Made by a program: the position numbers and the translations under genes | Assembly: GCA_963700155.1 (NCBI GenBank) | Contig: OY969472.1 | Coordinates: forward strand, 253,511-317,510 | DNA: 64,000 bases | Reading direction: 5' to 3' | Origin: an uncultured bacterium | Lineage (GTDB): Bacteria; Patescibacteriota; Dojkabacteria; J137 | Notes under the pieces: generated by a model | Databases searched by the model: none | Told to the model about the DNA's origin: nothing | The model's input: only the letters and a program-made list of their open reading frames with translations | Shown: positions 11,116-14,478 of the stretch, piece by piece | Position numbering within the stretch: position 1 is the stretch's first letter | Layout of the letters: each line of letters starts with the position of its first letter

Positions 11116-14100
11116 TTAGATAATAAAATTTATTACCTTATTTTTAACATAGATTACCTTTTTTGGTTCAACTTCAACATACTTTTTAACTTTTTCATCA
11201 TTTAATGCAATTGATTTTACTGCGTCTTCTTCACTATCATGATCGACTTCAATTATTGCTCTTACTTTTCCATTAATTTGAATTGCAATTTTTACCATCT
11301 CATTCTTTACTAAGCTTGAATCAAATTCCGGCCAGTTCTGCTGATGAATACTATATTCATTTCCTAATTGAGCCCATAACTCTTCAGTTATAAATGGCGC
11401 AAATGGAGCCAGTAATAACAAGAATGTCTCCCAAACTTCTTTAGAAATTGAACTTTCTTTTGTTAAAAAGTTAGTAAACTCCATAAATTTTGCAACTGAA
11501 GTATTGAAAGACAAATGCTCAATATCATCTGAAACTTTTTTAACTAATTTATTAACTTCCGAATTCTGGCTCTCATTTGCGCCTTCAGAAACTTTATCTT
11601 TCAAATCCCAAACTCTACTCAAAAATCTTAGCACTCCATTTTCTGCTCTGTCATTCCAAGGTTTTGCTTCTTCTAATGGCCCAATAAACATTTCATACAT
11701 TCTTACTGCATCTGCTCCAAATTTCTTGATTTCATCATCTGGATTTATTACGTTTCCCCATCTTTTACTCATCTTTCTTCCATCAGGTCCTAGGATAGTT
11801 CCCATGTGTCGCATTTTATAGAATGGTTCATCAAAGTTTATTATTCCTTGATCAAAAAAGAATTTTGTAAAGAATCTTGAATATAATAAATGTAAAACTG
11901 TGTGTTCTGGACCTATCATATACAGGTCAGTAGGCAGCCAGTAATTTGTTGTAGTTAAGTATCCTTTTAGAAATTCAATATACTCTGGATTTTCTTTCCA
12001 TTCATACAATTTTATTAATAACCAGATAGGAGCTATATCGAATTCATAACCATCTATTTTGCTTCTCAAATGATTCTCTTCGAAAGGGAAAATTAATCCA
12101 TCAAATGAATCCATTATCTCGACTTCAATATTATTATGTTCAAAAACATATTTTTTATTTCGTTCAAACTGTTTAGTTCTGATAAATTTATAACCATTTT
12201 TCTCAAGTAAATCTTTTGCTTCATCATGTTTAATTTTTTCTACAATAATATCAATGTCATTATGTTCTTTAATAAATTTCCTATTCAGTGCAGATACTGC
12301 TAATGAACCAAATAATGTATTCTTGATGTTATTATTATTTAATAATTTTATAACTTTAGCTGCTTCACTAATTATTTTTGAATTCATTTCATTATTGGGA
12401 ATTTCAGGTAGACTAACCTTCGGAGTTTCAAAGATTTCACTTTCATTATGAGCATCACAGAATCTAAAGTAGTACCAGCTTGAATCAACAAATGTATCCA
12501 TTGTATCGACTTCATAATGCCAGCCTTTGCCATACTTTTCTTCAGCTTGCTTTTTGAATGATTTAGAAGTTGCAATAGGAGATTCTCCATGTGGTAAAAA
12601 GTCTACATCAGTTGGAAGAACCAATGGCAGATCTGATTCATCTAATGGATGAGCATTCCCTTCTGGGTCGTAAACTATTGGAATTGGGCAACCCCAATAT
12701 CTTTGCCTTGAGACTAACCAATCTCTTAACCTATAAGTTGTAACCTTTTCTCCTAAATTATTTTCTTTTAACCAACTCTGCATTTTTTCAATAGCTTCCT
12801 CTGATCTCATCCCTGTATATTCTCCAGAATCGAATAAAATTCCATTGTCAATGAATAAAGAAGTTTCAGTTAACTCAGATTCAATGTTTTTATCATTTCC
12901 AAGCTCAATATTCTTTGCAATAGCTCTTTTAGTAGCATATATCCAATGCTCAATTTCATTTTCAGAACTTAAACTTTCTAATAACTCTTTACCTGTAAAC
13001 CATTTTTCAATCATATCTTCATGAGCTTCTCGATGAGACTCAGCAAAATCATTATCATCAACTATTATTAAATAGAAAGTCCCTTCGGCAAATCTTTGAA
13101 CTTTTTTCCCATTATGCCAATAGTTTGAATATATTTTAGGAACTACAACATATAAATCTTGAACACTCTTAATTCCGACCTCTTCATTTATCTCTCTTTT
13201 AATAGCATTATCTCCAGACTCTCCTTCATTTTTGCCACCACCAACTAATGTAACCAAATCTGGGTTCTTTGGCCAAGTTAAAGCCAAATATTTCTGATTT
13301 GATTTGTTAAAAATTAAGCATGACACTCCATCTACAAAAACAGAATTTTCTTTATGTTCTCCATATTCACTTGCTATAACTTCTTTGATTGAAATATCAT
13401 ATTTCTTTGCAAACTCATTATCTCTTTCATCATGTGCAGGAACAGCCATAATTGCACCAGTTCCATATGTCATTAAAACGTAATCTGCTGTAAATACAGG
13501 AATTTCTGCATCATTGAAAGGATTTATTGCAGAAATTCCTTCCAACTTTACCCCTGTCTTTTCTTTTTCAGTTTGTCTTTCTAAATCTGTTAGATTTTTA
13601 GATTTAGTTATATATTTTTCAACTTCTGAATAATTTGAGATCTCGGATTTCATTCTTTCTATAATAGGATGTTCGGGAGCTACAACCATGAATGTTGCAC
13701 CATAAATAGTATCTATTCTTGTTGTAAAAATCTCTATTTCAGATTCGATATCTGAACCTTTAACTTTAAATTTAACTTTTGTTCCCTCACTTTTCCCTAT
13801 CCAGTTTCTCTGTTGAGTTTTTGTACTTTCTGGCCAATCAACTTTGTCTAAATCGGCATCCAATCTGTCTGCAAAATCTGTAATTTTAAAAAACCATTGC
13901 TCTAAATTCTTCTGAATAACTTCTGTCCCACATCTTTCGCATTTCCCCTCAATTACCTGCTCATTTGCCAAAACAGTCTGATCTTTTGGGCACCAGTTTA
14001 CGGGAGCCTTCTTTTTGTAAGCTAATCCATTTTTATACAATTGTAAGAATATCCATTGAGTCCATCTATAATAATCAGGTCTGTGAGCTCCAACTTCCTT

Positions 14101-14478
14101 ATCCCAGTCAACTGAAATTCCAACGTTATTAATCTGATGAATAAAAGTTTTTATTGCATCTTCTGTAGATTTTTCAGGAGGAGTTCCAGTTTTTATAGCA
14201 TAATTTTCTGCAGGCAATCCAAATGAATCCCAACCCATTGGTAAAGTAACATTACGACCTTTCATTCTGTAATATCTTGCAGCAATATCATTTGCTACCA
14301 TTCCTTCTACATGTCCAACATGCAAACCTGCTCCGGATGGATATGGGAATGAGTACAAAGAGTAAAATTTCTCTTTATCCTTATTGAGTTCTGGAGTGGC
14401 ATATAATTTGTCTTTAATCCATTTTTCCTTCCATTTTGATTCATAGTCAGAAGGATTGAAAATTTTCTCCTTACTCAT
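11116..14478 (-). CDS. leuS: Leucyl-tRNA synthetase carrying two inserted domains: a Nudix hydrolase domain (about aa 371-540) and a nucleotidyltransferase-fold domain (about aa 674-846)
   Basis: Class I signatures [15 protein letters not shown] (HIGH) and KMSKRWGNV (KMSKS). Editing-domain blocks [20 protein letters not shown] and [23 protein letters not shown]. Core [19 protein letters not shown] and [10 protein letters not shown]...HLLYSRFF. Inserted segment 1 has a perfect Nudix box [23 protein letters not shown] (G-x5-E-x7-REUxEExGU). Inserted segment 2 has [25 protein letters not shown], matching the hG[GS]...[DE]h[DE]h NTase motif and closely resembling the ANT(2'')/LinB-like GGWAIDALLG...HEDLDIVV block. 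Confidence 0.9.
   Translation of the reverse strand: [1120 protein letters not shown]

Follow-up and report, generated by a model that had tools for sequence, protein, structure and literature searches.

Aminoacyl-tRNA synthetases are a textbook case of domain accretion, the acquired domains being mostly appended, mostly non-catalytic and found mostly in eukaryotes. RNA polymerase is another essential enzyme with insertional domains, none of which is known to be a recognisable enzyme. Among synthetases, the closest described counterpart of the gene reported here is NCBIfam family NF040702 ('isoleucine--tRNA ligase, N-acetyltransferase domain-containing'), in which a class Ia synthetase is likewise combined with a small-molecule-modifying domain. 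Outside the synthetases, the BEAN and HABAS domains of the RNA polymerase beta and beta' subunits are described as lineage-specific insertional domains (PMC11515920); the likeness lies in polyphyletic domains seated in surface loops of an essential multidomain enzyme and present in a lineage-specific manner. Here, a leucyl-tRNA synthetase (LeuRS) gene, leuS, is described from a 64,000-nt stretch of the genome of an uncultured bacterium of the Dojkabacteria (Patescibacteriota; GenBank assembly GCA_963700155.1, contig OY969472.1, positions 253,511 to 317,510 of the forward strand). This whole stretch is called the window below, and positions are counted from its first letter. Nested inside the synthetase are a Nudix hydrolase domain and a nucleotidyltransferase (NTase) domain, and the protein belongs to a family of Patescibacteria LeuRS that carry nested enzyme domains in combinatorial fashion.

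Domain accretion and insertion in synthetases, including the fusion of isoleucyl-tRNA synthetase (IleRS) with a GNAT acetyltransferase in NF040702, are known already; the combinatorial LeuRS family has so far not been described. GNAT domains are also among the cargo of the LeuRS relatives, yet NF040702 concerns another synthetase, whereas the LeuRS family has two to four different nested domains, distributed combinatorially over five loops. Unlike the insertions of RNA polymerase, the cargo of LeuRS is made up of entire enzymes whose catalytic motifs are conserved. In open-access full texts and bioRxiv preprints, no account was found of a LeuRS in which Nudix, NTase or other enzyme domains are nested. 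The sequences of the family are already public, under the labels 'leucine--tRNA ligase', 'leucyl-tRNA synthetase/predicted alpha/beta hydrolase family esterase' or 'alpha/beta fold hydrolase'.

A bacterial-type LeuRS interrupted by two domains

The leuS gene occupies positions 11116..14478 of the minus strand as a single, uninterrupted open reading frame (ORF) of 1,120 codons plus the stop codon, and was identified from the ORF list, TIGR00396, an AlphaFold2 (AF2) model and Foldseek. Its product scores 915.9 bits against TIGR00396 (leuS_bact; cut-off 548.4), with the match falling into three pieces around two inserts, and Pfam recognises the class I catalytic domain, the editing domain (PF13603; 205 bits) and the anticodon-binding domain. 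By motif location, the HIGH motif of the synthetic site reads HVGH (aa 53-56; 14311..14322, minus strand) and the KMSKS motif reads KMSKR (aa 902-906; 11761..11775, minus strand). The CP1 editing domain, matched by PF13603 in two pieces, spans aa ~224-581 (12736..13809, minus strand). Its motifs are intact: the threonine-rich TTRIDT lies at aa 252-257, and a 15-residue block at aa 339-353 contains the universally conserved editing Asp. The gene encodes a LeuRS of the bacterial type, probably the housekeeping one, with intact synthetic and editing motifs.

In an alignment with 119 relatives, the excess over plain relatives (~800 aa) amounts to ~320 aa and is confined to aa ~372-538 and aa ~676-846. 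A preliminary description of this DNA, made from the sequence alone, had put the excess over canonical bacterial LeuRS at about 250-300 aa in two insertions; the two discrete blocks were recovered. Its quoted peptide strings were all present at their places, and the single continuous ORF that it reported was confirmed. The full-length AF2 model, built with a 120-sequence alignment, has a mean pLDDT of 91.1 and a pTM of 0.84, and both inserts appear in it as compact alpha/beta domains. With this confident fold and both catalytic motifs intact, the inserts agree with the earlier view that they are genuine in-frame, complete domains.

Foldseek places the LeuRS model with solved bacterial LeuRS (E 1.7e-73 to 5OMW and 2BTE; target-normalised TM 0.75-0.83). 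The core superposes on the E. coli, T. thermophilus and N. gonorrhoeae enzymes with a target-normalised TM of ~0.8, the query-normalised TM being only ~0.6 because of the ~320 extra residues in the window LeuRS. The catalytic core, ZN1, CP1, the anticodon-binding domain and the C-terminal domain are common to all of these structures (E. coli 4AQ7/5OMW, T. thermophilus 2BTE and N. gonorrhoeae 7NU7); however, the solved enzymes have nothing at the two insert loops, where the window LeuRS has ~320 aa in two nested enzyme domains. A separate difference concerns the leucine-specific domain before KMSKS, which the E. coli and T. thermophilus enzymes possess and which is absent in the window LeuRS and its relatives (aa ~860-906; window 11761-11900, minus strand, where a 21-residue sequence was noted).

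A Nudix domain nested in the editing domain

Insert 1 (aa ~372-538, with a folded core at aa 380-525; 12865..13365, minus strand) was assigned to the Nudix hydrolases by PF00293, by comparison of profiles with solved structures and by the AF2 model. The PF00293 match reaches 33.2 bits with the full-length protein as query and 36.6 bits with only the insert (gathering threshold 21.1), which upholds the earlier report of a Nudix insert with an intact box. The 23-residue Nudix box (aa 414-436; 13171..13239, minus strand) fits G-x5-E-x7-R-E-U-x-E-E-x-G-U with its metal-binding Glu residues, all catalytic Glu and Arg being present. In the preliminary description this insert sat between the end of CP1 and the YRLRDW block. 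Instead, the PF13603 match is interrupted by it, with model positions 1-149 found at aa 224-377 and positions 131-184 after the Nudix insert; therefore, it is the C-terminal part of the editing domain itself that holds the Nudix domain. In the AF2 model it consists of strands, the box helix (aa 422-434), further strands and C-terminal helices, at a pLDDT of ~80-92, a secondary structure that fits the alpha/beta/alpha sandwich of Nudix hydrolases, in which the box forms a loop-helix-loop.

A profile of 20 LeuRS-embedded Nudix inserts matches the solved E. faecalis structure 2AZW at 3.5e-10, aligned over ~135 residues, and also the Ap4A hydrolases of lupin (1F3Y) and A. aeolicus (3I7U); Ap4A hydrolases take second and fifth place among the matches of this profile in the Protein Data Bank (PDB). 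The box and the ~135-residue alignment are common to these free-standing Nudix and Ap4A hydrolases and the window domain, which differs from them in being nested in CP1 and in having a family-specific C-terminal helix (HW...A....I.LG.D). Across the 24 embedded Nudix domains, the strict box G-x5-E-x7-RE-x2-EE-x-G is retained in 20, despite identities of only 22-58 % to the window domain.

Markers of Nudix specificity reside in the X-loop, ~17 residues past the box, where Tyr is found in ApnA hydrolases, Pro in ADP-ribose diphosphatases and SQPWPFPQS in NADH diphosphatases (PMC5389931, citing Dunn et al. 1999 for Tyr). In the window protein, Tyr453 sits at +17 from the box, so that an aromatic X-loop residue is common to this domain and the ApnA hydrolases; Y or F occupies the position in 19 of the 22 family members checked, and the Aquifex Ap4A hydrolase 3I7U aligns 'IHYWY' to 'SNYWH'. 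The window Nudix has neither the Pro that marks ADP-ribose enzymes nor the NADH motif SQPWPFPxS. Against the curated RppH/NudH model (PRK00714), which stands for a characterised ApnA/RNA pyrophosphohydrolase, the score was 13-20 bits, compared with the 116-259 bits called for, and the window Nudix is therefore not filed as a member of the ApnA hydrolases. The suggestion of an Ap4A substrate in the preliminary description is compatible with the X-loop residue and with the Ap4A hydrolases among the best matches with solved structures, which support it weakly. Taken together, these features hint that dinucleoside polyphosphates or related NDP-X compounds, of the Ap4A type, may be the most likely substrates.

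A nucleotidyltransferase domain within the Rossmann fold

Insert 2 (aa ~676-846, with a folded core at aa 697-840; 11941..12453, minus strand) is a minimal NTase of the Pol-beta fold. It is seated in the Rossmann fold, in whose second half it separates the SSWYY helix from the (D)LYxGxEH strand. PF10706 (Aminoglyc_resit) matches at 32.0 bits in the whole protein and at 35.2 bits for the insert alone (gathering threshold 21), over profile positions 4-75 of 149, that is, the N-terminal half of the family profile only; PF14907 (NTP_transf_5) gives 29.8 and 33.0 bits, respectively (gathering threshold 31.2). By contrast, PF01909 (MNT / NTP_transf_2) had no match at E <= 1 for either the window protein or insert 2. 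The NTase assignment of the preliminary description thus stands, with PF10706 above gathering and the Pol-beta motifs intact, while its labels 'MNT' and 'LinB-like' were inaccurate.

Three motifs were located from an alignment of seven embedded NTases. An 11-residue segment (aa 722-732; 12283..12315, minus strand) holds the hG[GS] motif with G724 and S725; the metal-binding D-x-D (NDIDIIV, aa 740-746, with D741 and D743; 12241..12261, minus strand) aligns with DIDI of LnuA; and a third acidic residue, E787, follows on the next beta-strand (IEVEIMD, aa 784-790; 12109..12129, minus strand), which is strand 101-106 of the domain model. G724, I742 and D743 are invariant among the seven, and S725, D741 and E787 are each present in six (D741 is E in the seventh), at pairwise identities of 22-51 % apart from one close pair.

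Modelled alone, the NTase insert reaches a pLDDT of 88.5 and is complete and two-lobed, with the two-lobe fold of ANT(2'')-Ia; within the full model it lies mostly above pLDDT 90. Structural comparison of the model yielded 15.2 for ANT(2'')-Ia, 14.1 for MenT1, 13.8 for LnuA and 13.4 for TM1012, and Foldseek returned the same four neighbours. The profile of the seven embedded NTases matches LnuA at an E-value of 2.5e-7, with G-S and D-I-D aligned to G-G and D-I-D of LnuA. Identity of the window NTase to these enzymes (ANT(2'')-Ia, 4XJE; LnuA, 4WH5/4FO1; TM1012, 2EWR; MenT1, 8AN4) is 14-19 % (14-15 % for ANT(2'')), and it differs from them in being embedded in LeuRS. MenT1 is a toxin that extends the acceptor ends of tRNA (PMC10435456). 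As the fold is equidistant from the antibiotic-modifying enzymes and MenT1, the possible substrates include both small molecules and RNA 3' ends. The window NTase fails membership in the MenT sequence family (DUF1814), and it is without an antitoxin partner, whereas MenT has a cognate antitoxin.

When 1.84 billion cluster representatives were searched exhaustively with the NTase profile, LeuRS was the only long protein in which this NTase was embedded; the count is a lower bound because LeuRS more than 50 % identical merge into one representative. The next relatives were free-standing NTases of ~150-230 aa (best E 2e-14), and the remaining long matches were unrelated NTP_transf_5 fusions. A scan of species-representative genomes with the full-length LeuRS, which also missed the window's own genome, returned mostly plain LeuRS and no further NTase-bearing gene; a metagenome scan contained no relative of the window NTase. 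No free-standing paralogue of either insert occurs in the 64-kb window. In base composition, the NTase insert (G+C 0.257) differs from the flanking core (0.32-0.36), from the window average (0.307) and from the Nudix insert (0.309); its low G+C could reflect weaker constraint or a different history.

Combinatorial cargo in Patescibacteria LeuRS

A search with the full-length protein retrieved a series of long LeuRS, mostly from Candidatus Dojkabacteria, with some from Magasanikbacteria, Moraniibacteriota and 'Patescibacteria group'. The preliminary description knew of no LeuRS with such domains; this suggested uniqueness did not hold, as other Patescibacteria LeuRS carry them too. In the family set of 120 proteins, which includes the window LeuRS (alignment A1; sites mapped on the plain reference P0008, 806 aa), 55 harbour at least one insert and 65 are plain, with 14 combinations and up to four inserts per protein (P0006, 1400 aa). 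Nudix domains are present in 24 and NTase domains in 7 of the 120. The long forms come from several independent contigs (JGI, Logan, ENA and NCBI). Metagenome matches of 4.3-4.7 kb were considered as still longer LeuRS and rejected, as those among the matches listed were adjacent synthetase genes joined.

The inserts occupy five recurrent loops, at ~aa 249, 376, 394, 450 and 530 of P0008, two of which fall inside the editing domain. Site A, in the N-terminal part of CP1, accepts a GNAT acetyltransferase or a Ham1 (ITPase-like) domain. Site B, the C-terminal loop of CP1, accepts Nudix or at least three unrelated domains of ~110-130 aa without a Pfam match, and site B2, directly past site B, a 122-aa domain that is likewise without a Pfam match. 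Site C lies after IPIVYDPEG in the catalytic core and is occupied by an alpha/beta serine hydrolase, and site D, after SSWYY, is occupied by the NTase. The recognisable cargo therefore comprises Nudix, Ham1, GNAT, serine hydrolase and ANT/Lnu-like NTase. Families of this sort are mostly known for sanitation of the nucleotide pool and modification of small molecules.

The same CP1 loops also house other inserts of ~110-130 aa, of at least four types, in P0014-P0028 (926-aa forms), P0061/P0064/P0099, P0033 and P0003-5 (site B2). Pfam holds no family for insert types Bx1, Bx2, Bx3 and B2, or for the short site-A piece of P0006; examples of such types read 'WSNNFDKF...AWHDAVSE' and 'YRSYLMGNS...GYWNEVVG'.

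Selection, co-residence and turnover of the inserts

The ratio of non-synonymous to synonymous substitution rates (dN/dS) was estimated by the Nei-Gojobori method on the closest available gene pair (P0004/P0005; loci L081/L082). It was 0.05-0.09 in core segments, 0.11 in Nudix, 0.22 in NTase and 0.26 in the site-B2 region. The low values in the inserts thus point to purifying selection, more relaxed than that on the core. Moreover, insert identity follows core identity (r = 0.90 over 21 pairs for NTase; r = 0.63 over 276 pairs for Nudix), which indicates that the inserts have resided in LeuRS for a long time and were not captured independently in the recent past. The catalytic motifs are the best conserved columns of these otherwise fast-evolving inserts.

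On a neighbour-joining tree of 770 core columns, which is only indicative, the inserts are scattered. The nearest core relative of the window LeuRS, P0009 (75 % identical), is plain, and P0016, with a core 72 % identical to that of the window, has a different site-B domain plus a hydrolase. An even closer comparison is offered by P0054 (plain) and P0066 (GNAT), both from Dojkabacteria, whose protein cores are 93 % identical and whose DNA differs by one clean, in-frame 522-nt indel. The two loci (L163:1501-3915 and L164:1501-4473) have in common an upstream beta-lactamase-like gene, and no obvious target-site duplication was seen at the GNAT indel; here an entire nested domain has recently been gained or lost. 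As inserts are patchy among close relatives, the LeuRS core works with or without each cargo. Cargo has repeatedly been lost or gained, and may also have been exchanged by recombination between leuS alleles. A distribution so patchy and dispensable, with the plain 75 % identical P0009 as an example, speaks against an integral role in LeuRS.

Genomic neighbourhood of leuS

Directly upstream of leuS and on the same strand, positions 14747-15307 (minus) encode a 186-aa protein with an RRM_1 domain (59 bits), whose N-terminus is acidic and Thr/Glu-rich and whose C-terminal tail is Arg/Gly/Asp-rich. On the other side, a 182-aa ORF (10565-11113, minus) starts 2 nt past the leuS stop codon, followed by a Ser/Thr/Asn-rich protein of 592 aa that has a hydrophobic segment at its N-terminus (8786-10564, plus). 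These two, as well as the ORFs of 171 and 353 aa at 15533-17121 (minus), match no Pfam family. A 750-aa ORF at 18732-20984 (plus) combines an N-terminal Ham1/ITPase domain (137 bits) with a C-terminal barrel resembling IMPDH and GMP reductase, ~230 residues between them being without assignment; it is another fusion of a house-cleaning with a housekeeping enzyme in the same genome as leuS. A bacterial class A RNase P RNA (6402-6751, minus; 177.5 bits) and a tRNA-Pro(CGG) (26396-26468, plus) are the only Rfam/ARAGORN matches in the 64 kb.

Discussion

The window LeuRS is read here as the housekeeping synthetase and, at the same time, a carrier of accessory enzymes that are autonomous and probably active, an explanation that, on sequences and structure models, has a slightly better than even chance of being right. 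Each insert is a whole domain that emerges from a surface loop, with the synthetase fold closing around it: the predicted Nudix pyrophosphohydrolase nested in the C-terminal part of CP1, and the predicted two-lobed Pol-beta-fold NTase of ~150 aa, of the structural class of ANT(2''), LnuA, TM1012 and MenT1, within the Rossmann fold. Both are probably catalytically active and individually dispensable for aminoacylation, and may serve as tethered 'house-cleaning' or small-molecule-modifying enzymes, whose expression the tethering would guarantee by way of an essential, constitutively made protein in a genome of ~1.1 Mb. The Nudix domain would act on Ap4A-type compounds, which aminoacyl-tRNA synthetases themselves generate. 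The NTase would transfer nucleoside monophosphate (NMP) to a hydroxyl, either on a small molecule or at the 3' end of an RNA.

Several results weigh against this explanation. The purifying selection was measured in the sister lineage P0004/P0005 rather than in the window's gene, for which no close relative was found. Curated Nudix equivalogs (RppH/NudH, MutT and NudB) scored 13-24 bits against cut-offs of ~100-260, and the Lnu(A/C/D/E/P) resistance models (NF000061, NF000141 and others) 15-25 bits against 300-350, so that neither insert is assignable to a characterised subfamily. In some relatives, the domain is kept with degenerate motifs (Nudix of P0006, P0108, P0097 and P0117; NTase of P0063), and it may thus have non-catalytic value too. 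Finally, as the NTase was found in no long protein other than LeuRS, its role could be specific to LeuRS, beyond simple hitch-hiking.

That the architecture is an artefact (an assembly chimera, a hidden frameshift, an intein or a mobile element) is scarcely credible. The G+C of the NTase insert, below that of the flanking core, would suit such an origin, as would the lack of a close relative of the window's exact NTase in the collections searched. However, the frame is continuous, and each LeuRS element that an insert interrupts continues in register on the far side; the window protein sits on a 1.14-Mb contig; and the AF2 model is confident across the insert junctions. The same two-insert architecture recurs in six more proteins, whose contigs are independent and come from JGI, Logan and NCBI, and the chimera, which the preliminary description had raised against itself, is therefore excluded. 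An intein or homing element was also considered and rejected: no Hint, LAGLIDADG or homing-endonuclease domain was found, the insert borders in the window DNA have no repeats, and the junctions (…EVIASEYG…, …TETSLFID…, …CDAHNESE… and …TTTNYWLP…) are without the Cys/Ser/Thr ... His-Asn residues of splice sites. A different doubt, that the inserts are real and catalytically silent, acting as structural, binding or sensor modules (for example, in nucleotide sensing or partner docking), deserves rather little credence. The relatives with degenerate motifs fit it, as do the other cargo at the same loops without a recognisable enzyme family and a dN/dS in the inserts that is 2-4 times that of the core, yet every catalytic residue is present in the window protein, and it is precisely the motifs that are best conserved in domains that otherwise evolve fast.

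The two domains might alternatively form an integrated module of LeuRS, a new regulatory or proof-reading layer as the preliminary description proposed, in which the Nudix would destroy Ap4A, Leu-AMP or mis-activated adenylates, and the NTase would either act on the 3' end of tRNA-Leu, by modification or repair, or nucleotidylylate the synthetase. This is unlikely, though it would account for the aromatic X-loop residue and the Ap4A-hydrolase similarity of the Nudix, for an NTase clade that among long proteins is embedded only in LeuRS, and for the long co-divergence of inserts and synthetase. It sits poorly with the patchy distribution and repeated loss among close relatives with an otherwise equal core, with the lack of MenT sequence membership of the NTase, and with loops that also take unrelated cargo (GNAT, Ham1, alpha/beta-hydrolase and Pfam-less domains) of no obvious link to LeuRS chemistry. 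Another alternative, target-tethered immunity, would have the inserts detoxify aminoacyl-adenylate mimics or other inhibitors at the very enzyme attacked, by acetylation (GNAT), ester or amide hydrolysis (serine hydrolase), cleavage of pyrophosphate or phosphoramidate (Nudix) or O-nucleotidylylation (ANT/Lnu-like NTase). Precedents exist: aminoacyl-nucleosides, processed microcin C among them, are acetylated by the GNAT enzyme MccE2; immunity is also conferred by the serine peptidase MccF and by HIT hydrolases; and TM84 of agrocin 84 is a Leu-AMP mimic that inhibits LeuRS (PMC8323819). Among characterised enzymes, those most closely related to the NTase modify antibiotics; the rapid gain and loss of combinatorial cargo resembles the dynamics of an arms race; and NF040702 was listed among the matches alongside models of mupirocin-resistance IleRS. 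The argument nevertheless proceeds by analogy throughout, with no LeuRS-directed natural inhibitor known in these habitats. Curated Lnu/ANT models were missed more than 10-fold in score, and PADLOC named no defence system, its sole match being one of 20.8 bits between the Nudix box region and a candidate family. Ham1 and Nudix, furthermore, are classically sanitisers of the nucleotide pool and not resistance enzymes. Immunity of this kind is accordingly held to be quite improbable.

The boldest version of a functional link would make LeuRS a modular 'enzyme rack', in which nested Nudix, NTase, GNAT, Ham1 and serine hydrolase domains are wired functionally to the synthetase and swapped between lineages as cassettes. 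It is a speculative proposal, with the chances set clearly against it. If true, the rack would have as its substrates Leu-AMP or Ap4A, the tRNA-Leu 3' end, or aminoacyl-adenylate-mimicking toxins at their target, and an aminoacyl-tRNA synthetase would turn out to contain a hitherto unrecognised layer of control, whether for quality, for signalling or for target-tethered immunity.

The family shows that a bacterial LeuRS tolerates complete enzymes in five loops, kept there under selection, and it provides a natural map of insertion-permissive sites in LeuRS that is useful for engineering. Because these proteins are annotated plainly as 'leucine--tRNA ligase', or in one case as 'alpha/beta fold hydrolase', their extra activities are invisible in metabolic reconstructions of the Candidate Phyla Radiation (CPR). 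If the Nudix domain is an Ap4A hydrolase, control of synthetase-made Ap4A becomes directly testable, and if the NTase acts on tRNA or on inhibitors, a new principle of regulation or immunity would follow. The main interest lies in the combinatorial family itself and in its testable link between a synthetase and chemistry of the Ap4A or tRNA-end type, and the family illustrates a way in which ultra-small genomes may attach accessory enzymes, for house-cleaning or protection, to a protein that is essential.

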